NCBI GenBank assembly: GCA_018304385.1 | Contig: JAGVWJ010000007.1 | Coordinates: forward strand, 1 to 38,317 | From: Candidatus Micrarchaeota archaeon | GTDB lineage: Archaea > Micrarchaeota > Micrarchaeia > Anstonellales > Bilamarchaeaceae | Length of the DNA stretch: 38,317 bases | Reading direction: 5' to 3' | Shown here: one piece after another, positions 17,242 to 38,317 of the stretch | How positions within the stretch are numbered: the stretch's first letter is position 1 | How the letters are laid out: each line of letters starts with the position of its first letter | Notes under the pieces: model-generated | Database searches by the model: none | Told to the model about the DNA's origin: nothing | The model's input: the letters and a program-made list of their open reading frames with translations, nothing else | Made by a program: the position numbers and the translations under genes

Positions 17242-20200
17242 ATGCGCTTGATTAGTATAATCTATCTGTTTCTAATTACAAATATTATTTTTGCCGCTCA
17301 ATTAACCGTTACAACAGAAGGCAAAGGTTTTGTTAAATCTACTTCTCATTCTGGAATAGAATGTGGATATGCTTGTACTGCAGATTATGACGCAGGAACA
17401 CAAGTTTCATTAATAGCTAAACCAAATGAAGGCCTTTCATTTATTGAATGGGGTGGTGCGTGCTCAGGCAGCGAGCTTACGTGCACTGTTTCGCTTGATT
17501 CAGATAAAGAAGTAATTGCAAAATTCTCCGGTGAAGTATTAAAGGAGTATCAGCTTACTGTTTACAAATCTGGCAATGGACAAGGTAAAGTGCAATCTGA
17601 TCCTTATGGTATTGGTTTAGGAATAATAGCACCATATGATTCTGCTCCATTTCCAGCAGGTTCAGAGGTTGTGCTTACTGCAATGCCATTAGAAGGTTCC
17701 ATTTTTGGAGGATGGAGTGGAGCTTGCACTGGAACACAAGAGATATGTAGCATTGTTATTGATTCTAAGAAAGAGGTTACTGCTTCATTTGTTATTGAGG
17801 GAGAACCCACACCAGAACCAACCCTTATACCACCAACTCCTCAACCTGTCCCTCAACCTCCGCCTGCTTCAATTCCAGGTACTATTGATACAACAAACGC
17901 CAAAGGCCTTTCTTTAACCGTTAGCAAGATAGGTTCTGGCGCAGTTGCTTCTAAAGATCAAAAAATAGTTTGTGGTTCTACTTGCATGGCGAATTATGAA
18001 TTGGGAACAACAGTTACATTAACAACCGCTGCTTCTAGCGGATATACATTTATGGGTTGGGAAGGAAATTGTAAGACTAAAGAACCAATATGTATTGTAT
18101 ATATGTCTAAGCAAAAAACCGCTCGCGCATTATTCTTTCCCTCTCTCAATCAACTCACTGTATCAAAAATAGGAGATGGTCATGTAACATCTTCGGACTA
18201 TAAAATATTTTGCGGTCCTTATTGTATTGGAGATTATCTTGGTCATGCAACCGTTACTCTAACTGCGATTCCATCTATAGGCAGTACATTTAATGGTTGG
18301 GGCGGTGTGTGCAGCGGTAAAAGCACAACCTGTGTTGTTACTATTAATAGCTCAACAAATGTAACTGCGAGTTTTGAAACGCCAAAGCCAATAGAATATA
18401 ATCTTTCAGTTAGTGTTAGTAACAAGGAATTGGGCGTTGTTATATCTTCTGATAAAATAATAGATTGCGGTAATAACTGCTCTAGCGCTTATGAAGAAGG
18501 AGAAACAATTACCCTTACAGCCAGTAAATTAAAAGTATATGCTGATGCACATAAGACTGCGCTCGCGTTTATACCAGTGTTCGATGGTTGGGGCGGCGCA
18601 TGTGTTGGCAAAAATCTAACATGCACTGTTACAATGGACGCCTCAAAGCAAGTCGTAGCGAATTTCAGAAAGCCAAGAGAGCGATATAATCTTAGTATAA
18701 ATATGGCTGGAGAAGGATCGGGTACAGTAAGTGCATATGGTGCACAGATTTGTCCTGGAGACTGTTCGCGTATGTCCCTTCCTGGGGACCCAGTTCCACT
18801 TCAGGCAATTCCTGATGATGGTTCTATTTTTGGTGGCTGGGAGGGCCAATGTAATGCATATAGCACTAGTGATGCGAATCATTGTACTGTTAGCCATAGT
18901 TCCGATGAAGATACGAATATAACTGTAATCTTTAACAAAGATCCAAACCCGCCAAAAAATTATCGTCTTAATATATCCAAATCAGGAACAGGCAAAGGAG
19001 AAGTTACTGTTAGCTATAATAATGGAAATTCATATTTTATATGCGGAATGAGCGAAACAACCTGTTATCAAAAGTTTCCAAGAGATGAAAAACTAACGCT
19101 TACAGCAAAGCCAGATCTAGGTTATACCTATGAAAGTTATGTGGGTTCCACTTATATGGGGCCAGTAACAGTTCTTGGCTCCAGATTTAAAGGATGGGAA
19201 GGCGCATGTACTGGCTTAACTGAAACATGCAATTTAACAATGGATTCTCTAAAGCGCGTAACTGCAAAATTCTCGCAGAGTGTATTTTATAATATCACAG
19301 TTGTAAACGAGGCAGAGACAATTACAATAAGGACATACGATCAGATATATTATTATGGTTATACAACTACAGGATCAAAAATTTCTTGCGGCAATAGCTG
19401 CACAGCAGAATATGAAAGCGAGTCTGTTGTTAAACTCCAAAGCAGCAAGGATGTAAAATGGACCGGCTGTGATAGCGTTCTTGAAAAAACATGCGTTGTG
19501 AATCTGGAAAGCAACCGAATTATATCAGTTGATTTAACAGATGCAGATAAAATCCAATTAGTCAAGCAAGCGCTTGTTGAATATTTTACTAGTGGTGAAT
19601 ATGCGCAATATGATTTATTTTCATATGTCCAAAATGAACAAAATCTACCGTTTCAGCATACACTTGAGGCTTTAATGAAAAAAGAAATGAAAAATAATGT
19701 TGCAAGTATAAAGAATTGGATAGAACAGAACAAGGCATGGTTCCTTAATCAAGGTGGCATCCAGGCAACAATAAATCAAATAATGAAGGACATCGTCATA
19801 AGAGTTTTAACAGATGTATTTGCAAATGAAATAGCACAATATCCTGCATTAAAAGATTTCTTGTATGATGAAAGTAAAAAACCATTCCAAACCGCGATGG
19901 TGGATTTGAAAGCAAATCGAAACGGCGGTGGGTTTAATGGATTAAGATCATGGATCCAGGGAGCTAAAGACTGGTATTTAAGCGCTACAGGCATAAATGA
20001 TAAAATAGAAGAATTAAAACCAAAGCCTCCGCCACCGCCCCCTCCTCCACCTTCAATTACTAGCATCGAACCACAAGGAAGACAAATTGGCAAGCCAACA
20101 GTGGTTAAAGGAACTAACTTTATCAATGTTCAAAGGGTTACGGTTGGGTCAGACGTAGTATCATATAATCTGATATCTGAAAATGAAATTGTGCTTCCAT

Positions 20201-20823
20201 ATGTTGCATGGGGAATGGGGTCTAACCCTACAGTAACAGTTGAAACAAACGGATGGAAAACATGGGCACCGCTCATATATAATAACGGAGAAACAGTAAT
20301 ATATAATGCAAATGGGGGAACAGAAGAATGCTTTGGTGGCGTTGGAAAAGGATGCGGTGGTTTAACTGGCGGAAATGTTCTTGGTGGTTCATCAAGAATA
20401 TTGTTTACTCGAGCAGGCTGCGAAAGTGAGGAAGATGGGTATAGAAAATGCTGGGTTGCACCAGGAAGCTTAAGACATGATAACTGTTGTGTAAGAAATC
20501 CAGGTGGCAGGTATTGCGGCGGACCTGGCACTGATGGCAAACCAGCTGAAGATAAAAACCATAATGGAATGTGCAGCTGGGAATGGGATACTGCAGTTTC
20601 AGATGTATTTTGGTTTAGGGCATGGGAGCAGTGGTTTAGGGTTGCGGGTTATAGCCCAGACTTAACTCCAGCTAGTTCCAGTCCTTTCGGTAGGTATAAT
20701 CAAGGGGAAGCAGTAACTACTACTGGCGTATGTGCAGCATCTGGCCACGAGCTAAGGGATATAGAGGATTTCAGATTTTGCTGCTCTGGTTCAGCATATA
20801 TAAGTAATAAGAAATGCGTATGA
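17242..20823 (+). CDS. Large surface protein: 8 divergent InlB B-type repeats, helical region, IPT/TIG-like domain, Cys-rich C-terminal domain
   Basis: Signal peptide; eight F.GW.G.C.G....C....V.A.F units; poly-Pro linker; ITSIEP...VKGTNF (IPT-like); C-terminal GSLRHDNCC domain. Confidence 0.88.
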   Translation: MRLISIIYLFLITNIIFAAQLTVTTEGKGFVKSTSHSGIECGYACTADYDAGTQVSLIAKPNEGLSFIEWGGACSGSELTCTVSLDSDKEVIAKFSGEVLKEYQLTVYKSGNGQGKVQSDPYGIGLGIIAPYDSAPFPAGSEVVLTAMPLEGSIFGGWSGACTGTQEICSIVIDSKKEVTASFVIEGEPTPEPTLIPPTPQPVPQPPPASIPGTIDTTNAKGLSLTVSKIGSGAVASKDQKIVCGSTCMANYELGTTVTLTTAASSGYTFMGWEGNCKTKEPICIVYMSKQKTARALFFPSLNQLTVSKIGDGHVTSSDYKIFCGPYCIGDYLGHATVTLTAIPSIGSTFNGWGGVCSGKSTTCVVTINSSTNVTASFETPKPIEYNLSVSVSNKELGVVISSDKIIDCGNNCSSAYEEGETITLTASKLKVYADAHKTALAFIPVFDGWGGACVGKNLTCTVTMDASKQVVANFRKPRERYNLSINMAGEGSGTVSAYGAQICPGDCSRMSLPGDPVPLQAIPDDGSIFGGWEGQCNAYSTSDANHCTVSHSSDEDTNITVIFNKDPNPPKNYRLNISKSGTGKGEVTVSYNNGNSYFICGMSETTCYQKFPRDEKLTLTAKPDLGYTYESYVGSTYMGPVTVLGSRFKGWEGACTGLTETCNLTMDSLKRVTAKFSQSVFYNITVVNEAETITIRTYDQIYYYGYTTTGSKISCGNSCTAEYESESVVKLQSSKDVKWTGCDSVLEKTCVVNLESNRIISVDLTDADKIQLVKQALVEYFTSGEYAQYDLFSYVQNEQNLPFQHTLEALMKKEMKNNVASIKNWIEQNKAWFLNQGGIQATINQIMKDIVIRVLTDVFANEIAQYPALKDFLYDESKKPFQTAMVDLKANRNGGGFNGLRSWIQGAKDWYLSATGINDKIEELKPKPPPPPPPPPSITSIEPQGRQIGKPTVVKGTNFINVQRVTVGSDVVSYNLISENEIVLPYVAWGMGSNPTVTVETNGWKTWAPLIYNNGETVIYNANGGTEECFGGVGKGCGGLTGGNVLGGSSRILFTRAGCESEEDGYRKCWVAPGSLRHDNCCVRNPGGRYCGGPGTDGKPAEDKNHNGMCSWEWDTAVSDVFWFRAWEQWFRVAGYSPDLTPASSSPFGRYNQGEAVTTTGVCAASGHELRDIEDFRFCCSGSAYISNKKCV

Positions 20824-27912: not shown

Positions 27913-28239
27913 TTACAACTTCCGTACTAGCATCTGAAAATATTTCTTAGCAGCTAAAAGAGTTTCGTCTCCTTTCTTTGTAAGTGTATAATATTTTCTT
28001 CGTTCTTCAAACTCAGATTTTATCAAGCCTTCATTTTCCAGCTTATAAAGAACAATATATATCATAATCTTATTTGGCTTAAAAGAAAAGAGCTTCTCTA
28101 TTTGTTTATCTAACGCATAAGCATAAATTTTTTTATTTTTCCTTATTAGCGTTAAGATATAGATCCAGAGATTCCCATAGGTTAACAGATGTTTAAGTCG
28201 TTTTATTGGCTTAGTAGTAACTATTGTTTCTTGCCTCAT
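27913..28239 (-). CDS. PadR-family transcriptional regulator
   Basis: IYAYAL, IYIVLYKLENEGLIKS...RRKYYTLTKKG motifs. Confidence 0.9.
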   Translation of the reverse strand: MRQETIVTTKPIKRLKHLLTYGNLWIYILTLIRKNKKIYAYALDKQIEKLFSFKPNKIMIYIVLYKLENEGLIKSEFEERRKYYTLTKKGDETLLAAKKYFQMLVRKL

Positions 28240-28301: not shown

Positions 28302-29480
28302 ATGCGAATAAGCGTGTTGCTGCTATCGTTACTGCTTTTATTCTCTACCTCATTTGCTCTAAGTCTTACTGATATCCCATTAGTCCTTCCTGTTGTAATT
28401 GTAATTGTAGCAGGTGTTTTAGCAATAGCTTATTCACTAAGTCAAACACTTAACAGGCCGCAATTGCATGCATGGGTTAAAACAGAACTAAGGGAGCTAG
28501 TAGTTGCCGCGATATTATTCGCTATTGTAATTGGATTTTTTAGTGGTGGCGCGCAATCTATTATTTTTTTAATTACAGGTGAGGCTGATTATTATGTTGG
28601 CGGTAAGGAATTTGTTTCTGATATGAAGACTGTCATTACAGATTCGTATAGTGATCTTACCAAGGTTTTTCATAGCGTTGGTATGCGAGCTGCATTCTCA
28701 ACAAATATTGCGTTTCCAATTTTTTATTCATCAGGAACTGTGGGTGGTTCTCCATCTTCTGGTTTCGGGGCTTTTTTTACATTTTTATCCCCAGCAGCAA
28801 GTAATCTTACAAACACGTTATTTTTCTACACTGCATTAGAGGTTTTGCTAGATTTTTTTCATGCAGTAGGTTATAATTTAATCTATCTGGCATTTGCATT
28901 TCGTTTTATCCCATTTACACGCCAGCTAGGAAGTACACTTGTTGCACTTGTCATTGGTGCATATGTAATCTATCCATTTTCTTTAGTGCTTGTAAAAGGA
29001 TTTCATAATGTTATAGATGTTCCAAGCCCTAATGTGCCTGCAAGCGTGTTTGATGAGCTGGAGTTTATATTTCCACCAGGTGCATATTTTGTATGTAATG
29101 AATGGTGGATTAGAGTTATTGTTGCAACTTTAGGAGAGTACGTACTTATATTGCCAATATGCATACCAATATCAATAGCTTCGCTTGGCGTGTTATGGGA
29201 ACCTTGTAATTGGCTAGTAGCTATTATATATAATATTCTTATCCTTGCAATGACTCTTGTATGGGCTGGGATGGTTTTGGCATCAACTTTTGTTTCACCT
29301 AACATAGCTCCGGTTTTTGAAGGCCTGAAACCGTTTTTATCAGATGTTACAGGTCTTGTAGTTGTCAGTGTCATAGATGCGATAATTATCTCTGTTATAA
29401 CAATAGTTGGTGTAAAGAGCATTTCCTCTGCGCTTGGTGGAGAGTATATGCTTCCAGGTGTGCAAAAAATGGTTGGTTGA
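28302..29480 (+). CDS. Polytopic membrane protein, paralog 1 of 6 (VirB6/TrbL-like core, tentative)
   Basis: Signal peptide; PQLHAWVKTELREL; FRFIPFTRQLGSTLVAL...YVIYP; C-terminal SALGGEYMLPGVQKMVG. Confidence 0.85.
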   Translation: MRISVLLLSLLLLFSTSFALSLTDIPLVLPVVIVIVAGVLAIAYSLSQTLNRPQLHAWVKTELRELVVAAILFAIVIGFFSGGAQSIIFLITGEADYYVGGKEFVSDMKTVITDSYSDLTKVFHSVGMRAAFSTNIAFPIFYSSGTVGGSPSSGFGAFFTFLSPAASNLTNTLFFYTALEVLLDFFHAVGYNLIYLAFAFRFIPFTRQLGSTLVALVIGAYVIYPFSLVLVKGFHNVIDVPSPNVPASVFDELEFIFPPGAYFVCNEWWIRVIVATLGEYVLILPICIPISIASLGVLWEPCNWLVAIIYNILILAMTLVWAGMVLASTFVSPNIAPVFEGLKPFLSDVTGLVVVSVIDAIIISVITIVGVKSISSALGGEYMLPGVQKMVG

Positions 29481-29481
29481 C

Positions 29482-30492
29482 ATGATGCTTAAAAAATTAT
29501 TTTTCATTTTGTTTTTTGTTTCTTTTTCATATGCAGCAGCGTGCGTTCAAAATACATTTGAGGACATTATGAATACCAGCATGGGCAGTTATATTGCAGT
29601 TGCATTTGCATTTACCATTTTAGTTGTTGTTATTGCCTATTTCTTAGGTACGACATTTAATGAGGCTAGCTTCCTCGTTTTCTACAAGGATGAGTTGTTT
29701 CATTTATTTTTTTCTGCCATTCTTTTAAGTAGCGTGGTTGGCATCATGTTTTTTTCATGCAACGTCATTTCAGGTTTTCTTGATTTTGTCCTTGAAGACA
29801 GGCCTGGCGATGCGCAGGATTTTTTTGCTGAGAGTACTAGGACAGCAGGATCAAAATTGAGTGCATGTTACACTGGATTAGAAAGTCCCCAAGATATTGC
29901 GCTCTGCTACTTTCAAAAAATAGAGCAGGAAACAAGGGCTCTTGTAAAAAATTCAATGAGGCAGAGCATAGACAATGAAATGCGTTCAACGCTTGTTGTA
30001 ACGGTTTCAACACCAGTTACTGGCAGTGTTTCATTGCCTGTAGGTGCATATAAGCGCACCTATGGTTCGCAGTATGAAATGATATATACTAACTTTGCCA
30101 TGCCCGCGCTGATTAGCATAAGCATGCAGAGGGTGCTAATAACATTTGCAGTGGATTTTGCTAGGTTTTTGCTTCCTGTAGCATTTTTCCTAAGGATTCT
30201 TCCAATGACACGTACAATGGGTAATTTTTTTATTGCAGTTTCAATAGCACTCTATATAATAATCCCAGTTTTCTATGCGTTAATGGGTATTATGGATGAG
30301 GCGGTTCTTCCTAGTTGCATACAGTATGAAGAAATGATAACAGACACGGTTGCTGGTGATTGCAATACAAGTACAAGCTTTTGGCTTGTTGCGCGTGCAA
30401 TACCGCAAGCATTCTTTTTGCCGAATTTAATGCTCGCACTAATAATAACATTTTTATCAGCGATTAATAAGGCGTTGAGGGTGATTGGTTAG
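29482..30492 (+). CDS. Polytopic membrane protein, paralog 2 of 6
   Basis: FLVFYKDELFHL; LRILPMTRTMGNFFIA...YIIIP. Confidence 0.85.
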   Translation: MMLKKLFFILFFVSFSYAAACVQNTFEDIMNTSMGSYIAVAFAFTILVVVIAYFLGTTFNEASFLVFYKDELFHLFFSAILLSSVVGIMFFSCNVISGFLDFVLEDRPGDAQDFFAESTRTAGSKLSACYTGLESPQDIALCYFQKIEQETRALVKNSMRQSIDNEMRSTLVVTVSTPVTGSVSLPVGAYKRTYGSQYEMIYTNFAMPALISISMQRVLITFAVDFARFLLPVAFFLRILPMTRTMGNFFIAVSIALYIIIPVFYALMGIMDEAVLPSCIQYEEMITDTVAGDCNTSTSFWLVARAIPQAFFLPNLMLALIITFLSAINKALRVIG

Positions 30493-30493
30493 T

Positions 30494-32437
30494 ATGACTA
30501 AAAATATCAAGAATTATAATAAACTTCTTATCTTCGCGATGCTAATAATACTATCATCCATATTAACCGCTCAATCATTTGTTGATGAGGCTACAGCAGC
30601 ATCAACCTACGAGCTTGCCAAGGACTGGCGTGTTATATCAATGCTTTTCACCATGTTAAGTATTATTTTCATTGCATTAGCCTATATGTTTGGCCAGGGT
30701 TTTAATATACCTGAACTAAAGGCATGGGCATCAACAGAAATGACGCAGGCAGTAGTTACTGCAATAATAATACTAACGTTTACTGGGGTTATAACATTTT
30801 TGGATTTAATGGTTGCCGAAATAGTTAATAATTCTTTTCTTGGTTTTACTTGTGCAGGCGCAAGTGTATGTGCAATAACAACAGCAGAGCAATACCTATC
30901 TGGTATGATTGATACTGCAGAGGATCAGACAAAGAGTATTTTGCAGCAGTATGCTGATACATCAAGAACTGCTGCAGTAAGAGAAGGTGCGTCAGCAACG
31001 CCATTAATAAAACCCATCCCTCTTTTACAAGCATCTCTTTCTGGTTCTATTACTGCAGGATATTTAATGGATGCAGAGAGGTATCAATCTGTTCTTGAAC
31101 ATCTAGTGAATCTGCTTTCATCAATGTATGCACAACAATTTTTCGTTAAAGAAATTTCATTCAAGCTCGCCCCTATAATCATGGCCATGGGCATTGTTGC
31201 ACGATCATTTTTCATAACAAGAAAGCTTGGCGGTTTATTAATTGCGATAGGTGTAGGGACAATGTTTGTTTTTCCTTTGATGTATGTGTTTAATTGGCTA
31301 ACACTAAACGTTGCGTTGTATGGAGATTCTGTAATAACACCGGCTGGTGGTGTATGTCCTGCAACATGTTTGTTAACTGCACCTAAGTTTTATAGTGGCA
31401 CAACTCCAATCTATTCTAAGGCGGATTTGTATACATTTTTTGGGCTCTCTGAAGATCCAAATGGTGATGGAGACACAAGGGACAGCGAAATAACTGATGA
31501 AATAGTTGAAAATGTTGAAAAGTTGGCCAGGGGTGAAGTAATCGATTCATACACAAGCCCTAAGAATGGAAGGACTGCATCTTCCTGTGAGACTACAGCT
31601 CATGTTGGGAGTGGATATTGTCCGATTGAATGTCGTGAATTGCCATATCCATTGTCTACTACTTGTAACCCAATGCCTGAGATTCAGGAGCCAGAGGAGG
31701 GTCAACCTGAGGCATCATTTGTTAATGATGCAACACCAGATACAAGAATTGCATGCGATAGTATGCCTTCTGCCTGTAAAATAATAAGATATGTTAATCC
31801 TTATGATCCTTACTTTGAAGGTGCCCCTACTGATGCTACACTCCAATTATATGATAATTATGCTAGATATAGTGAAGATTGCAAAAGAGAGTGTAGAATA
31901 GTACCTCCGTTAAAAACAAATTGTGCAACTGGAGATAGCCTTCATTGCCCACTGGAAAAAGATTATTGCAAATATTCATGGAAGGATAATCTTAATGCAA
32001 GACCACCGGGTTGTGGTGTAGCTTTAGGTCCAAATGGTGGTCCTCCAGTTATAGCAAAGGCATGCGAAGCATCTTTTACAGCAATAGAATCTTGTACATA
32101 TGTACTTCCAAGAAGGGATGCACTTGATCAGCATGAATGTGATACTTGTTTATTAATTCCTGATCCATACAAATATGATCCTCCAATATATAAGAATTGT
32201 GCTGATCTCTGCAGGGGTTCACCAGCAGGTCCGCCAAGGATAAGCCCAGGAGAGTTTGCAAAAAAATCAGCAGAAGGCATGGTTGGAAAACCTGAGATAA
32301 AGGTAGCAGCATCATTGGTTCTTCCTGCCTATGTTTTACCTATTTTAAATATTACTGTTACTTTGATGTTCATAAGATCACTATCTCAAATACTTGGTGG
32401 GGATATTGAGATACCAGGGGTGAGTAAGATATTATGA
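30494..32437 (+). CDS. Polytopic membrane protein, paralog 3 of 6, with Cys-rich insertion
   Basis: PELKAWASTEMTQAV; ARSFFITRKLGGLLIA...FVFP; insertion with 20 Cys; C-terminal ILGGDIEIPGVSKIL. Confidence 0.87.
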   Translation: MTKNIKNYNKLLIFAMLIILSSILTAQSFVDEATAASTYELAKDWRVISMLFTMLSIIFIALAYMFGQGFNIPELKAWASTEMTQAVVTAIIILTFTGVITFLDLMVAEIVNNSFLGFTCAGASVCAITTAEQYLSGMIDTAEDQTKSILQQYADTSRTAAVREGASATPLIKPIPLLQASLSGSITAGYLMDAERYQSVLEHLVNLLSSMYAQQFFVKEISFKLAPIIMAMGIVARSFFITRKLGGLLIAIGVGTMFVFPLMYVFNWLTLNVALYGDSVITPAGGVCPATCLLTAPKFYSGTTPIYSKADLYTFFGLSEDPNGDGDTRDSEITDEIVENVEKLARGEVIDSYTSPKNGRTASSCETTAHVGSGYCPIECRELPYPLSTTCNPMPEIQEPEEGQPEASFVNDATPDTRIACDSMPSACKIIRYVNPYDPYFEGAPTDATLQLYDNYARYSEDCKRECRIVPPLKTNCATGDSLHCPLEKDYCKYSWKDNLNARPPGCGVALGPNGGPPVIAKACEASFTAIESCTYVLPRRDALDQHECDTCLLIPDPYKYDPPIYKNCADLCRGSPAGPPRISPGEFAKKSAEGMVGKPEIKVAASLVLPAYVLPILNITVTLMFIRSLSQILGGDIEIPGVSKIL

Positions 32438-33408
32438 AGTTAGTATTATTGATGTTTTTACTATTGCAATTCGCATCACTTGCATTTGCCCAGCAGTGGC
32501 TAAGTACATCTGCTATTGCAATAGTTACCTCAGTTGGTATTCTAGCACTAATTTATGCAATAGGTATAGGCCTTAATTCAGATGATTTAAAGTTTCTTAG
32601 TTCTGAGGAGCTGTATCAAACACTGGTTACTATTGTCATGATTAGTGTTGTTCTTGGTGCAGAGAATTTTTTAAATGCATTCTCTGCAAGCCTTGAACTT
32701 GGTGATAATTTACAGGATGCCTCTTTGGGTATAATGACTAGTACCATAGACAAACATTCATCTTTATTCAATAATCTTAAGACTTTTTCAAAGGATCTTG
32801 GCAAAGAAGCATCAGAAGGCATGTATTGCAGTTGGCAAGGTATGGGATTTAATACTGCAGCGTGCAGCTCTTTTCGTTCACTAGCGCCAGCAACATCACT
32901 TTCAATGCAAACACTTTCGCTCTCTGTTGCTGAGCTTGGTTCAGTGCATACGTTGCTTAATTTCGGAAAGAGCTATTCATTTACTCTTTTGCTTCCATTA
33001 GGTATTTTATTAAGAACCTTTAGGTTTAGCAGAGGTGCCGGCGGTTTATTTTTAGGTCTTGCTGTATCGCTTTATTTATTTACTCCCTTATCAGTTATAT
33101 TTATGAATATACTAATTTCATCTGACCCAGTTGGATTAGCTGCAGTGCCTCCATTGCCTACGCCAAGTTGCAATGTTTTTGCTTATGCAAATGCTCTCGG
33201 AGAGTTTGATTATGAGAATGTTGATACAGTAAACAGCCTTTTTGCAGACATGAAAAGTACATACCTGCCAAGATATCTTTATGCGTTTTTGATTAATGGT
33301 ACACTGAATACCATAGTTATTTTACTTACATTTATTGCATCATTAAGATGGGTATCAAAATTAGCAGGTGCAGATGTTGATATATCTGCATTGGCGAGGT
33401 TAGCGTGA
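32434..33408 (+). CDS. Polytopic membrane protein, paralog 4 of 6
   Basis: DLKFLSSEELYQTL; LRTFRFSRGAGGLFLG...YLFTP; C-terminal LAGADVDISALARLA; ATGA overlap with paralog 3. Confidence 0.85.
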   Translation: MKLVLLMFLLLQFASLAFAQQWLSTSAIAIVTSVGILALIYAIGIGLNSDDLKFLSSEELYQTLVTIVMISVVLGAENFLNAFSASLELGDNLQDASLGIMTSTIDKHSSLFNNLKTFSKDLGKEASEGMYCSWQGMGFNTAACSSFRSLAPATSLSMQTLSLSVAELGSVHTLLNFGKSYSFTLLLPLGILLRTFRFSRGAGGLFLGLAVSLYLFTPLSVIFMNILISSDPVGLAAVPPLPTPSCNVFAYANALGEFDYENVDTVNSLFADMKSTYLPRYLYAFLINGTLNTIVILLTFIASLRWVSKLAGADVDISALARLA

Positions 33409-33416
33409 TATGATTG

Positions 33417-33485
33417 GTTATGAGTTTGTAGTTATAAGTTTTGGGTTACGCGTAAACTCACTACTCAAAACTCACAACTCAAAAC
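33417..33485. repeat. Heptamer-built imperfect inverted repeat
   Basis: GTTATGA GTTTGTA GTTATAA GTTTTGG, central palindrome TTACGCGTAA, then the reverse-complement units (AAACTC, ACTACTC, AAAACTC, ACAACTC, AAAAC). Confidence 0.8.
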
Positions 33486-33496
33486 AGTGATTAAAC

Positions 33497-34576
33497 ATGG
33501 CAATAGAAACAATATGTAGTGGTGCTGCGACTGCGCTTATATATTCATCAATAATCCCAGCAGTTGCTATTAGTGCAGTGACAACTGCAATGATAATTGT
33601 ATTTGCTTATATGTATGGAAATACAACAAATAATCCCAAGGTGTTATTATGGGCAAAAACAGAGATAATGCAAGTGTTCATTTCAATTTCTACAGTTGCT
33701 ATACTTATCGGATTAATAAATTCATTTTGTAATATTAATGTTGATTCTGTACTCTCTTTATTTTCACTGCCTGGTGCTGGCGCAGTTCCTGGAGGGGTGA
33801 CTACTTTATATGATGGGGCAGAAAAATATCTTGTTGAGGCTGGAAAGTGGATTCATACATTAATGGCAGCAGCGCGTTATCATTTAGGTGGTTTTAACAT
33901 TCTTGAAGGTTATGGTCGATATTTATGTGAAGGTCCGGAAGGAACAGGATTACAGATAATATTTTGTATTTTTGGTAGTTCTATTGGTCTTGGGGGTGGT
34001 GCAGGTGTGAGCATGACGCCGGATTCAGGTTATGCATATATGGCACCAGCACTTTCAGTTTCTTTTAATGCACTTATTATATCTTACTTTTCTTCTTTAA
34101 ACTATTTATTTATTCTTAAATTTGTATACGGAGGGTTTATCTTCTTTTTCTTGCCACTAGGGGTATTTTTGCGTTCTATGCCATTTTTAAGGACATTTGG
34201 GTCACTCTTGATTAGTCTAACTATATGTTTTCTTGTTGTTTATCCATTAATTCTTTCTATATTCTATATCGATTTTCTTTCTCTAAGAGTACTTGCTCCA
34301 GATCTTGGCCCTTCTGGTGTTCTTTATTATTCCACTGCAGATATATCAAATGTAGTTGACGTTTGGGATGCTTTTGATACTGACGGTCTTTATAGCGATG
34401 TATTTGACTCAGGTGGTGATAAATCCTTGGAAATAATAAAACTTTCTGGGAATGCATTTTTGGTAGGCGTGTTTATTCCATCTCTTGCGATGCTTGCAAC
34501 ACTTGCAGCAGTATCTTATGTTAATAGATTCCTTGGTGAAGAAATAGATTTAAGTAGAATCGTACAGGTGATTTGA
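33497..34576 (+). CDS. Polytopic membrane protein, paralog 5 of 6
   Basis: PKVLLWAKTEIMQVF; LRSMPFLRTFGSLLIS...VVYP; C-terminal FLGEEIDLSRIVQVI. Confidence 0.85.
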   Translation: MAIETICSGAATALIYSSIIPAVAISAVTTAMIIVFAYMYGNTTNNPKVLLWAKTEIMQVFISISTVAILIGLINSFCNINVDSVLSLFSLPGAGAVPGGVTTLYDGAEKYLVEAGKWIHTLMAAARYHLGGFNILEGYGRYLCEGPEGTGLQIIFCIFGSSIGLGGGAGVSMTPDSGYAYMAPALSVSFNALIISYFSSLNYLFILKFVYGGFIFFFLPLGVFLRSMPFLRTFGSLLISLTICFLVVYPLILSIFYIDFLSLRVLAPDLGPSGVLYYSTADISNVVDVWDAFDTDGLYSDVFDSGGDKSLEIIKLSGNAFLVGVFIPSLAMLATLAAVSYVNRFLGEEIDLSRIVQVI

Positions 34577-34651
34577 GTATGAAGGTATTCAGCTTTGAGC
34601 AGTGGGCAGTGAGCAAGGTGTTGCTTCACTTGCATGAGAAAGGCACAAGAC

Positions 34652-34743
34652 TGCCGACGCAGCATAAGAGAACACAGGTCTGCGTCCCTATAGAGAATAT
34701 TAGTAGTACGACGAATATATAATAATGAGAAAATAGAAGGATG
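34652..34743 (+). repeat. Dispersed 93-nt hairpin element, copy 2 (92 nt)
   Basis: Stem GACGCAG (34656-34662) / CTGCGTC (34680-34686); the terminal ATG coincides with the start of paralog 6. Confidence 0.9.
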
Positions 34744-35823
34744 GTACAGATGACTGAAACAAGCGGGTATATGACTGGATTTGATGCGAATGTTGTTGGG
34801 ACATTGGCACCTAACTACCAGTGGCTGCCAATGACGGTCCTTGTTTCATTTATCATTATAATACTGCACGGTACACTGCTTGGCATTGCCCATGCGTTTA
34901 GTGTTCAGGACCTCAAACGTCATGCTAAGGCAGAGATAGTTAATGCGTTTGCAACACTACTTATAGCTATATTTTTGGTGTATCTGGTTTTTGAGATACA
35001 AGAGTTTTCACTAAAATATTTCTTATGCGCTAGCAATCCACTTGACTCAAGTGCACCGCTACAATGCCCTAAGTTTGATTGCGGCGGCGATTCAGTAACA
35101 ATAGATCAGCTTACAAACTCAATTGATTTGCTAAAATGTAAGATGGGTGAAAGGGCAAATGAATTTTCTGGACTTCAAGAGGAGGTTACTAGTGCTGCAG
35201 CTGTTCCATTAGGCTTGCTTACTACCTATTTTAGTATTATTGGGATTCCGGTTTTTCAAGGAAACTATGTCACTTCTTGGTATCAGGAAGCAGAAACCTA
35301 TCGTTTGCTAAACAATTTTATGACTACGTTGATTATAGGAACAAATGCAGTTACTGTTATTGCAGATTATGTAAAGAACAACATGCTTTCATTTTATTTG
35401 CCTCTTGGATTATTGCTTAGATCATTTTATTTCACACGGAGTGTTGGTGCATTCTTAATGGCTTTAGCAATAGGCCTTTATTTTATTTATCCAATATTAT
35501 ATATTATTACTGACCCTGGTTTTGTAAGGCCTAGCTTTACTGCTCCACCACGGCCACCTGAATTGGAATCTCCTTTGTGTTATCCCACTCTTAGCACTGT
35601 TACATTTGCAATGTCATCTAGTTCAGTTGAAGCTGTTGCAACCTCAGGGGGTTCTACTCTTTCAGTTGCCCAGCTAAAATCAGAGGTATCAGAGCTTTAT
35701 CTATCTGTTTTCTTGCATCCATTTGTTGTATTTGCCATAACTATTGTATTTATTAGATATTTAATGAATATTTTAGGTGGTGAAACACAAGATCTGCTTA
35801 GAGCAGTAGGGAAGGTGATTTAG
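34741..35823 (+). CDS. Polytopic membrane protein, paralog 6 of 6
   Basis: DLKRHAKAEIVNAF; LRSFYFTRSVGAFLMA...YFIYP; C-terminal ILGGETQDLLRAVGKVI. Confidence 0.85.
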   Translation: MVQMTETSGYMTGFDANVVGTLAPNYQWLPMTVLVSFIIIILHGTLLGIAHAFSVQDLKRHAKAEIVNAFATLLIAIFLVYLVFEIQEFSLKYFLCASNPLDSSAPLQCPKFDCGGDSVTIDQLTNSIDLLKCKMGERANEFSGLQEEVTSAAAVPLGLLTTYFSIIGIPVFQGNYVTSWYQEAETYRLLNNFMTTLIIGTNAVTVIADYVKNNMLSFYLPLGLLLRSFYFTRSVGAFLMALAIGLYFIYPILYIITDPGFVRPSFTAPPRPPELESPLCYPTLSTVTFAMSSSSVEAVATSGGSTLSVAQLKSEVSELYLSVFLHPFVVFAITIVFIRYLMNILGGETQDLLRAVGKVI

Positions 35824-35910
35824 ATGAAATTGATGTATTTTAACAATCAGAGATCTGCAACGGGACATGAGCCCAAAACTCCTAGGCCCAAAGCTCGCGG
35901 CCCACGGCCC

Positions 35911-36438
35911 ATGGCAGAATTATTAAAGGCACTAGCTTTATTTTTGCCGTTAGTTTCTTGTGGCGGAGATCCAGATACTGAGACGTCAAAAGGCAACAGA
36001 GATGGTGGTGCACAACATGAAATGGATAGTAAACCCTCGGATAACAAATGCAGGTGGGTAGTACTTGCAGAAGAATCAACAATAGTTGCTTTAGATGAAA
36101 CAGCATATCTTTTTGTTAATGAGCGTGCTGGTTTCTCAAGGTTAGCAGCTACGCTTATAGAAGTTGGAAGCCTACTCTCTGTTCCAGAGGATCCTGAAGG
36201 TAGAAGTGAGAGGGCCCGTTTCCGCATTATCGCATATGATATTGCTGGTGTAAGATTATCACAACTTACTTATGATGTAAACAGAAACGAAGGATTTATT
36301 ATAGTGCCTCTTAACCGGCCAGGTAGAGAGCCTCGTGAAGAAGCCCATATAAGATTGCTGGATGCCATGACATCAGATGGTGTTTATTTTGATAGTACTG
36401 AAATAACTGCGCAGCTTAAAAGATGGGAATGCGAATAA
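35911..36438 (+). CDS. Putative lipoprotein (track start 35824 includes a heptamer-repeat tract)
   Basis: MAELLKALALFLPLVSCGG resembles a lipoprotein signal; ATG 35911 is in frame with 35824. Confidence 0.65.
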   Translation: MAELLKALALFLPLVSCGGDPDTETSKGNRDGGAQHEMDSKPSDNKCRWVVLAEESTIVALDETAYLFVNERAGFSRLAATLIEVGSLLSVPEDPEGRSERARFRIIAYDIAGVRLSQLTYDVNRNEGFIIVPLNRPGREPREEAHIRLLDAMTSDGVYFDSTEITAQLKRWECE

Positions 36439-36449
36439 ATGGTGTCAAT

Positions 36450-38317
36450 ATGAAAAAATATATTATTGCGTTTCTTTTTCTTTTCATTGCAGGTTGCCTA
36501 GAAAAACCACTTAGTTATGGTTGCTGCAATCTGGATGAGGAGACTAATACTTGTATTCCACCTCTTAAAGGTGAAACCTCTGATGGCGTAGAACTAATAG
36601 GAACTAATGAGTGTGATGCAGAGTCTGGTACATGCAATGTAACCATCCGTATAACAAAATTAAGGCCAGGTGCTGAGCCTATTATAGAAGAGGTGCAGCC
36701 CATAATTAATGTATGTACTAATAGGGTTAGTGGATGCAGAACTGCGAATTGCGTTGCCCAAGTCTGTGGTTCTTTTAGCTATCGTCCTACACCTATTCCC
36801 AGTGTTGCAGATGCAACTAAGTTTAGTGAAGAAGCAGAGCAAGAAGGCAAGGTAGATGCAATAGACGCAGCAGCAGAGGCCGTGCCAACGAATTTTTACG
36901 GTACAGTTTGTCATATGTTAAAAACAAACGAAACTCTTCAAACATTTTTAAAGAATTCCAAAGGTAGTTTTGTAAATACCTTTAGGGTTGGCATTGGAGA
37001 TAGCTTTGATGAATTTGACAATTACAGATATTTATTTCCTTATACAGACTCAGTTTGTAATGCTAATCCTGTTATAAAAGGCACTAAAGATAGATACATG
37101 AATTATCTATTGACACCAGGACAATTTCAGATTCATGTAAGTGATCCAGCCCTAGATCAAACTGATAATGGTCTTGAAGCTGAGGCATTCTGTTTGGAAG
37201 ATGCAGAAAGACCTTTCTTAGGGCCCCAATATAATGGTAATACCATTTCCGCATACAAGATGAAAAATATAACCAGAGAACCAATCGATTATAGTTATAA
37301 AGAATTAGATGTAAAATTCTATCTTAATTTTCTTTCCATAATGTATGCAGATCAGCTTGATACAGAATCCATAGGTGATGTTCCTTTGCCTGCGCCATTT
37401 GAGTGTGAAACTGGAATTGAATGTGCCTCAGGTTTTTGTAATTATAAAGATTATACTAGGGGCATATGCAAAAAAGATGACAGCTGGATCAGATGCAGCT
37501 GCAGTTCAGCTGCACGTGAATGCTTAGCATCAAACATATATATCGATTATCTTGATGATGTGAAGCCAACTACTGCTGATGAACTGCAAGAGCATGTTGA
37601 TGCGTATATTAATGATGGCGCAGAGTTTTATAAAAAACGTGATCGCCAGCTTAAATTAGAGTATGGGGAGGTAGATCCTGACTGTGATTTTTGGGCGAAT
37701 CCTACTGGTGATATTGATGGCGTACACTACGGTGTGCCAGCAGCAAATGGTGTGTACTTTCCGGTAGATTGTATTGTAGAAGATTATACTAGTTGGCGGA
37801 TTGTATGTACTTTGCCCCCTGAGGCTTCCTCCAATTCACAATTTTCTTATGTTTGCGAACCTGCAGGAGATAATTATGCGTGTAGAGAAAACGTTGAAGA
37901 TGCAACAGATACTATTACATGCGTTTTTGCGGATAATAACATGGTTTGTTCTATCTCATCATCTAGGGCATTTGATGATTGCCAATCAATAGGAGAGAAT
38001 AGTATTGGATGCGGATATGCTGCAGGAAGTCCAGGCGTTACTTGTAATATTGGAGAAGGTGGCAGTGTTGCGTGTACATCATTATATCCAAGTATAACCA
38101 TAACTTCATGTAGCTTTGATGGAAGCAGCACATTAACCTGTTCATCAACAGCTTCAAGGGTTTTTGGTGATTGCGAAGATAACAGTGGTACAAAATATTG
38201 CGGCAGCCAGGGGCAGCAGTTCGTTGATGGTCTTCTTGAGATAGATGGTTCAGATTTTAAGTATTTATTTGATCCTGACATTAGATTTTTTGGTTCTGAA
38301 AAACAAGGCATTAGCGG
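36450..38317 (+). CDS. Large Cys-rich putative lipoprotein, 3'-truncated by the window end; not in ORF track
   Basis: Manual translation from ATG 36450 (MKKYIIAFLFLFIAGCLEKPLSYGCC...) is open for 622 codons to the window end; lipobox FIAGC; many spaced cysteines. Confidence 0.88.
   Translation, partial: MKKYIIAFLFLFIAGCLEKPLSYGCCNLDEETNTCIPPLKGETSDGVELIGTNECDAESGTCNVTIRITKLRPGAEPIIEEVQPIINVCTNRVSGCRTANCVAQVCGSFSYRPTPIPSVADATKFSEEAEQEGKVDAIDAAAEAVPTNFYGTVCHMLKTNETLQTFLKNSKGSFVNTFRVGIGDSFDEFDNYRYLFPYTDSVCNANPVIKGTKDRYMNYLLTPGQFQIHVSDPALDQTDNGLEAEAFCLEDAERPFLGPQYNGNTISAYKMKNITREPIDYSYKELDVKFYLNFLSIMYADQLDTESIGDVPLPAPFECETGIECASGFCNYKDYTRGICKKDDSWIRCSCSSAARECLASNIYIDYLDDVKPTTADELQEHVDAYINDGAEFYKKRDRQLKLEYGEVDPDCDFWANPTGDIDGVHYGVPAANGVYFPVDCIVEDYTSWRIVCTLPPEASSNSQFSYVCEPAGDNYACRENVEDATDTITCVFADNNMVCSISSSRAFDDCQSIGENSIGCGYAAGSPGVTCNIGEGGSVACTSLYPSITITSCSFDGSSTLTCSSTASRVFGDCEDNSGTKYCGSQGQQFVDGLLEIDGSDFKYLFDPDIRFFGSEKQGIS

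Follow-up and report, generated by a model that had tools for sequence, protein, structure and literature searches.

Six neighbouring VirB6-like channel paralogs, predicted from sequence and modelling, in Micrarchaeota

Six neighbouring genes of a tiny host-dependent archaeon (Candidatus Micrarchaeota archaeon, GCA_018304385.1) encode ancient, distinct copies of one predicted five-helix membrane protein that resembles VirB6/CedA, the channel subunit of conjugation-type transfer machines. In other Micrarchaeota families the six genes are followed on the same strand by 2-TM proteins and, in most of the genomes read, by a VirB4/CedB-like ATPase, and in one of them they are preceded by VirB2-like pilin candidates. 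We suggest, with a probability of roughly 0.65, that the six genes encode non-interchangeable VirB6/CedA-type subunits forming the membrane core of an archaeal type IV secretion-like (Ced/Ted-like) machine that is fixed in the chromosome of most Micrarchaeota. We found no paper describing it.

The window analysed is the whole 38,317-nucleotide contig JAGVWJ010000007.1. The six co-oriented genes, here called hexad A (A1 to A6), are separated by gaps of 1, 1, -4, 88 and 164 nt, as an earlier note on this sequence had stated, and their features are given in the table below. Pairwise BLASTP within this small set gave E values of 1e-5 to 1.6e-11 for most pairs, with collinear matches, and a six-way alignment has invariant E62, R201, R207, G210 and P225 in A1 numbering. 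The same five positions (E56, R226, R232, G235 and P250 of A5) stay invariant across 58 diverse family members. The three ordered motif blocks claimed in the earlier note were confirmed, namely the Glu after TM1, the LRxFPFTRxxG loop, and the C-terminal LGG(E/D)xD tail. The note was also correct that the window holds no VirB4/VirD4/HerA ATPase or pilin.

Features of the hexad A locus and of related loci on other contigs (C, contigs of the same genome; coordinates without a contig refer to the window)
Feature	Coordinates	Strand	Description
PadR	27913..28239	-	PadR-family regulator (Pfam PadR 2.9e-12), divergently transcribed upstream of the operon, possible regulator; a 58%-identical homolog has the same divergent position in one relative but not in the other sampled relatives
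A1	28302..29480	+	VirB6/CedA-like paralog 1, 392 aa; signal-peptide-like N-terminus, extra hydrophobic segments in the outer loop; single clade, sister to B1 (97)
A2	29482..30492	+	paralog 2, 336 aa; lacks the C-terminal LGGExD tail; single clade, sister to B2 (97)
A3	30494..32437	+	paralog 3, about 647 aa (start ATG 30494 or TTG 30485); roughly 340-aa extracytoplasmic insert holding 20 Cys between TM4 and TM5; single clade, sister to B3 (99)
A4	32434..33408	+	paralog 4, 324 aa; its orthologs take most of the sub-threshold CedA model hits
A5	33497..34576	+	paralog 5, 359 aa; the one that was modelled
A6	34741..35823	+	paralog 6, 360 aa; single clade, sister to B6 (97)
d1	35824..36438	+	204-aa ORF between A6 and G1; lineage-specific, membership of the system doubtful; no Pfam match
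G1, N-terminal part	36450..38317	+	N-terminal 622 aa of a 1314-aa Cys-rich lipoprotein (lipobox FIAGC followed by a CC motif), cut by the contig end; full-length form is P0334
G1, residues 700-1314	C35:33805-31961	-	continuation of the giant lipoprotein
G2 homolog	C35:31586-28428		second giant protein, follows G1
ATPase module	C33:19315-24491		likely partner module of the hexad
Pilin-like homolog	C1:12336-12713		
Pilin-like homolog	C36:3542-3793		

The family is large. A profile of the six paralogs finds 2034 cluster representatives at E<=1e-10 among 1.84 billion, which is far beyond chance, and 2907 cluster representatives match in total, yet no Pfam or NCBIfam model names the family and no transporter family claims the proteins. 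It was found in 41 of 41 genomes of the order and in 111 of 121 sampled genomes of the phylum. The 73 orthologs of A5, at 33-64% identity, are all unnamed Micrarchaeota proteins, and a search with A2 returned Micrarchaeota loci only.

A tree of 77 proteins showed that the six types are ancient positional orthogroups that keep a fixed gene order, and that the whole hexad was duplicated en bloc into type A, in this window, and type B, on contig C4. All 13 groups are single clades, needing 12 label changes, which is the minimum, whereas shuffled labels need 60.5 on average, and five A/B pairs are sisters. These orthogroups lend indirect support to the hetero-oligomeric channel proposed in the earlier note.

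To examine the fold, A5 was modelled with AF2, which gave a confident model (pLDDT 89.3, pTM 0.82) with a topology like that which VirB6 appears to have. The predicted subunit has an outside N-terminus, five TM helices, a large helical outer loop between TM2 and TM3, and a variable, acidic outer loop before TM5. The short, Arg-rich TM3-TM4 loop, which carries the invariant motif, is read as cytoplasmic from its charge, and the C-terminal tail is also read as cytoplasmic. Signal-peptide-like N-termini in A1-A4, together with loop charge and Cys distribution, agree with this topology. The top three Foldseek hits were chains of TrwI/VirB6 of plasmid R388 (PDB 7o3v, 8rt9, 8rtd; E 0.2-0.3), which were also the only full-length VIA-align match (Z 9.1-9.5, 235-245 of 261-272 residues). 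These scores are middling for helical proteins, as the rmsd is 6.8-6.9 A, Z under about 13 is common for helical bundles, and unrelated helical hairpins reach Z 8-9 over about 70 residues. Clusters of three families, TrbL, TrbL_2 and TrbL_3, appear among ESM Atlas structure neighbours at TM 0.42-0.50.

Sequence-level homology to bacterial VirB6 was not detected. Neither the six paralogs nor the 58 family members hit TrbL (PF04610) at E<=10, a profile of A5 orthologs found nothing among PDB sequences, and hhalign gave no signal against TrwI alone or against a 34-sequence TrwI profile (probability 1.2%), although that template profile was shallow, at >50% identity. Pfam and NCBIfam scans of the six paralogs likewise gave nothing usable. 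Interestingly, however, CedA and CedE (NF041796, NF053657) are the two most often hit of 18950 NCBIfam models across the 58 members, with a best E of 1.5e-4 for CedA. Run over whole genomes, the CedA model gives sub-threshold hits in 25 of 41 relatives, and by our reading against the family hits, 22 of the 23 hits at E<1e-3 lie in or beside hexad genes, always aligning CedA positions ~75-200, which correspond to TM3-loop-TM4. The best score is 24 bits against a cut-off of 330, none of this genome's own copies hit the model, and the control scored above cut-off only in Sulfolobus acidocaldarius.

Because all direct similarity scores are below the usual thresholds, the hexad could be a Micrarchaeota-specific membrane complex unrelated to type IV secretion, the VirB6-like shape being a common helical arrangement and the weak CedA hits reflecting composition. 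We consider this unlikely, as the CedA hits concentrate on hexad genes and on one region of the model and not on the many other membrane proteins of these genomes, as three different TrbL families appear among the structure neighbours, and as gene order gives independent evidence.

In other Micrarchaeota families a single hexad lies in one co-directional cluster. In four such genomes (here G050, G043, G070 and G074) it is followed by one or two ~275-aa 2-TM proteins, and in all but G074 also by a VirB4/CedB-like ATPase; a ~240-aa protein follows in G050 and G043. The two small proteins just upstream of the G043 hexad hit T4SS_pilin and TrbC/VirB2 at 4.5e-4 to 0.03. Of seven small TM proteins tested, lying upstream of or near hexads or single copies, five hit T4SS_pilin and four of these also TrbC/VirB2, at E 1.9e-4 to 0.47, all below cut-off, so that their identity as pilins is only suggested. 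The G043 pilin-like proteins also match the N-terminal hairpin of B1 (residues 38-90, E 7e-5 within one small proteome), a relation seen for this one paralog only but resembling that reported between CedA1 and CedA and between VirB2 and VirB6 (PMC9905601).

In the genome studied here neither hexad is adjacent to an ATPase or a pilin. Pfam PF03135, which models the VirB4 N-terminal domain, is absent, but this was misleading, since the genome has three VirB4/CedB-like ATPases, of 478 aa on C2 (CedB 1.5e-31, VirB4-like 8.5e-26), 520 aa on C33 (CedD 2.7e-19) and 474 aa on C44 (CedB 2.6e-12). The C33 ATPase is VirB4-like and closest to the hexad-linked ATPases (446 and 433 bits). The C2 ATPase forms an operon with a seventh, single copy of the family, an arrangement found in five genomes including this one and G050. 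This linkage is not universal, as the two are split in one genome and no single copy was detected in another at 1e-8.

The six subunits are inferred to assemble 1:1:1:1:1:1 into a ring whose conserved cytoplasmic loop and tail dock a hexameric VirB4/CedB-like ATPase. The machine may move a macromolecule between cells, DNA being the most likely cargo by analogy with Ced/Ted, while the outer loops, the Cys-rich A3 insert, G1 and G2 may build the part that crosses the space under the S-layer. The ring, the ATPase contact, the substrate and any role in host contact are inferences from sequence and prediction.

The giant proteins point to another possible role. G1 is homologous to the first giant gene after hexad A in 8 of 8 relatives and is usually followed by G2, and A3 orthologs in relatives carry inserts that bring them up to 1380 aa. 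By contrast, d1 has no homolog in eight related operons or elsewhere in the genome, and its GC is 0.426 against 0.378 for the hexad. G1 and G2 have no Pfam match and no PDB sequence match apart from a chance-level prohibitin coiled coil, and the AF2 model of the G1 N-terminal 622 aa was poor (pLDDT 45, pTM 0.34). The hexad, at least type A, could have been recruited away from transfer to export, fold or anchor G1 and G2, or to tie the S-layer to the membrane, with no cell-to-cell cargo, and the separation of both hexads from an ATPase in the order to which this genome belongs would fit. However, hexads in other families have no giants and are instead followed by the 275-aa proteins and a VirB4-like ATPase, and type B has no giants at all, so that this alternative appears improbable. 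That G1 and G2 are themselves S-layer proteins was rejected, because the S-layer protein of the cultured Micrarchaeon carries PF05123 (10.1101/2021.04.28.441871) and these do not.

As VirB6, VirB4 and VirB2 sets are typical of conjugative elements, and a Schlafen-type gene flanked by repeats may lie about 4 kb upstream, the genes could also be the conjugation apparatus of an integrated mobile element. This was rejected as very unlikely, given the presence of the system throughout the order, orthogroup trees that follow the genome families, and flanking housekeeping genes (LeuRS, purA, scpB and a Trm5-like methyltransferase). No integrase, relaxase or coupling protein appeared among the neighbours scanned, although no dedicated search for a relaxase or coupling protein was run.

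The Ced (Sulfolobales: CedA, CedE, CedA1, CedB, CedD) and Ted (Thermoproteales: TedA, TedB, TedC) DNA-exchange systems are chromosomal archaeal systems built from a VirB6-like 5-TM channel protein, a VirB4/HerA-like ATPase and a VirB2-like pilin, and Saccharolobus already uses two channel paralogs, CedA and CedE (PMC11868833). The Micrarchaeota system differs in having six channel paralogs in fixed order and a second copy of the whole hexad, extra conserved ~275-aa and ~240-aa proteins, and giant Cys-rich lipoprotein partners, and its DPANN hosts have no known UV or DNA-repair context. In R388, TrwI probably forms a homo-pentamer under the VirB5 stalk, whereas six distinct subunits are implied here, and no VirB3, VirB5 or VirB7-11 were recognised. 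The Rickettsiales rvh system (PMC2653234, PMC7648143) also has a tandem array of diverged VirB6-like genes, some with very large extensions, in a host-dependent organism with a reduced genome, but its members match the VirB6 family by sequence. The chromosomal type IV secretion system of Patescibacteria/CPR (PMC12102498) is retained across a radiation of ultra-small, host-dependent cells, and its virB6 and virB4 genes are reported as essential for epibiotic growth, but it has a single VirB6 that standard profiles recognise, with no hexad and no giant Cys-rich partners.

A bolder possibility, which we regard as doubtful though not excluded, is that the channel of a phylum-wide descendant of the type IV secretion system is an obligate hetero-hexamer matching the six-fold symmetry of the VirB4-like motor, with one hexad copy coupled to giant disulfide-rich envelope proteins, and that it is the physical conduit through which these cells take DNA or other macromolecules from their hosts.

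How DPANN archaea physically exchange material with their hosts is an open question, and no molecular machine has been assigned to it in Micrarchaeota. The gene set described here provides a concrete, testable candidate, a T4SS/Ced-like system kept in nearly every sampled genome despite genome reduction, much as the chromosomal T4SS is kept in ultra-small CPR bacteria. Its architecture of six fixed channel paralogs is not reported for Ced or Ted or in the T4SS papers we consulted. The finding gives a name to a large orphan family (about 2900 clusters at 50% identity) and would extend the reach of VirB6/VirB4/VirB2 homologs in archaea beyond the Thermoproteota.

The six genes lie on a 38317-bp contig (C19), which is the entire window, of a 1.53-Mb, 65-contig, 89%-complete genome (G000), and orthologs of the genes in this window are labelled Candidatus Micrarchaeota. 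The six ORFs, here called A1 to A6 or hexad A, have the spacings of 1, 1, -4, 88 and 164 nt given in the earlier note, and they are true paralogs, as that note had proposed: pairwise matches are collinear, at E 1e-5 to 1.6e-11 within this small set, the residues E62, R201, R207, G210 and P225 are invariant, and the same five positions stay invariant across 58 diverse relatives. No Pfam or NCBIfam family claims them. The coordinates of these and the related features are collected in the table.

Positions of the hexads and of associated features (window positions are those of contig C19)
Feature	Location	Strand	Description
Hexad A (A1-A6)	window 28302-35823	+	Six paralogs
Wedged ORF	window 35824-36438	+	204 aa, between A6 and G1
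Repeat protein	window 17242-20823	+	1193 aa, six InlB B-repeat (Flg_new_2) domains (1.1e-51)
Contig junction	window 38315 end; C35:33805-28428	- (C35)	Residues 700-1314 of G1 at C35:33805-31961; 1052-aa G2 homolog at C35:31586-28428
Hexad B (B1-B6)	C4:27738-35391	-	Second hexad of G000
Paralog B1	C4:33796-35391		Its N-terminal hairpin is matched by the pilin candidates
ATPase module of G000	C33:19315-24491 (L043:7316-12492)		Proteins of 276 aa, 262 aa, 520 aa (ATPase) and 257 aa
Small 2-TM protein	C1:12336-12713	+	Homologous to VirB2-like pilin candidates of other genomes
Small 2-TM protein	C36:3542-3793	-	Homologous to VirB2-like pilin candidates of other genomes
6-TM protein of G000	C57:13894-14649	-	251 aa
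Hexad-linked ATPase of G043	L084:5485-8628	-	1047 aa, VirB4/CedB-like

To assess the size and range of the family, a profile of the six proteins was searched against 1.84 billion sequences, and it found 2907 cluster representatives at E<=1e-3 and 2034 at 1e-10, many of them 1000-1700 aa long. All 41 sampled genomes of the window's order have 7-21 matches. In an even sample of the phylum, 111 of 121 genomes have the family, with 12-17 matches in the window's order and mostly 5-9 in most other families, while it was not found in ten genomes of five families; this tally includes one unpublished genome (G063), on which no other claim here rests. All 30 A5-type loci found among GTDB species genomes are Micrarchaeota MAGs. 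The possibility that the hexad belongs to a mobile element is excluded by this distribution. Literature searches found no description of this system in Micrarchaeota or DPANN.

A5, folded with 73 orthologs, gave a confident model (pLDDT 89.3, pTM 0.82) with five long TM helices and a helical outer region between TM2 and TM3. A1-A4 begin with signal-peptide-like segments, the TM3-TM4 loop, which carries LRxFPFTRxxG, is short and K/R-rich, and the loop before TM5 is acidic and Cys-bearing, with 20 Cys in A3, giving a predicted topology with the N-terminus outside and the C-terminus inside. The three best PDB hits in a Foldseek search are chains of R388 TrwI/VirB6, though these are weak (E 0.2-0.3). 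VIA-align over 48161 representatives likewise ranks TrwI first (Z 9.1, 235 of 261 residues), as the only match spanning the whole protein, and a second comparison gave Z 9.5 over 245 of 272 residues for 8rt9_F. ESM Atlas structure neighbours include the TrbL, TrbL_2 and TrbL_3 families at TM 0.42-0.50. On their own, these scores are only suggestive for an all-helical protein, and an unrelated lineage-specific complex remains a rival, although an unlikely one.

At the sequence level, a comparison with a TrwI profile was negative. Against that, CedA and its paralog CedE, which together with TedA are the archaeal VirB6 homologs (PMC9905601, PMC11868833), are the two NCBIfam models, out of 18950, that are hit by most family members. 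When run over whole genomes, the CedA model gave sub-threshold hits in 25 of 41 relatives. Checked against the family hits in these genomes, 22 of the 23 hits at E<1e-3 lie in or beside hexad genes, mostly A4 and A5, and they always align CedA positions ~75-200, the TM3-loop-TM4 core.

Genomes of the window's order hold two hexads. Type A, the one in the window, is always followed by a giant Cys-rich lipoprotein, G1 (1131-1640 aa, 47-92 Cys, a lipobox then CC), and usually also by G2, which has a signal peptide, a TM near residue 200 and a long low-Cys tail. An envelope-anchoring role for type A is thus a further rival reading, which we also consider unlikely. The last ORF of the window is the first 622 aa of G1, whose full-length form (P0334) is 1314 aa. 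Its C-terminal half, 100% identical to P0334, and a G2 homolog lie on contig C35, so that C19 and C35 abut, with about 68 codons missing between them. The ORF wedged between A6 and G1 has no homolog in eight related operons or elsewhere in the genome and has a higher GC (0.426 against 0.378), and it is probably a lineage-specific insertion. The InlB-repeat protein, probably a surface protein, lies upstream on the same strand, but is separated from the operon by opposite-strand housekeeping genes. Type B, on contig C4, stands between housekeeping genes.

Further analysis by a tree of 77 proteins made A1-A6, B1-B6 and a seventh, single family member each a single clade, needing 12 label changes, the minimum, where shuffled labels need 60.5. 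The tree pairs A1/B1, A2/B2, A3/B3, A5/B5 and A6/B6. An ordered hexad therefore existed first and was then copied whole, which is what one expects if each position is a distinct, required subunit.

The genome has three VirB4/CedB-class ATPases, on contigs C2 (CedB 1.5e-31), C33 and C44. The seventh, single family member forms an operon with a ~260-aa 2-TM protein and a CedB-like ATPase in G000, G016, G006, G031 and G050, and most of these five genomes also keep a ~240-aa protein downstream. Interestingly, in genomes of other Micrarchaeota families (G050, G043, G070 and G074), the single hexad is directly followed on the same strand by one or two ~275-aa proteins, and in the first three, but not in G074, a VirB4/CedB-like ATPase comes next. 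The G043 ATPase aligns to the 520-aa G000 ATPase over its residues 2-74 and 612-1044, which leaves an insert of about 540 aa just after the N-terminal part, possibly an intein or an inserted domain. In G000, the equivalent module is detached, on C33, and holds two paralogous ~270-aa 2-TM proteins, the VirB4/CedD-like ATPase, which is closest to the hexad-linked ones, and the 257-aa protein; the ~270-aa and ~240-aa families have no Pfam or NCBIfam match. The 251-aa protein on contig C57 is homologous (E about 1e-25) to the 6-TM proteins directly upstream of the hexad in G070 and G050, and may be a further conserved component. Small TM proteins that lie just upstream of the G043 hexad and of several single copies hit T4SS_pilin and TrbC/VirB2 at 2e-4 to 0.03, all below cut-off, and are candidate pilins; neither of their two G000 homologs is next to a hexad.

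That the hexad forms a hetero-hexameric ring, that the ATPase docks on the conserved loop and tail, that G1, G2 and the A3 insert act as the outward-reaching part, and what the cargo may be are all inferences. Taking these observations together, we suggest that the hexad is most likely the channel platform of a Ced/Ted-like, T4SS-derived machine.
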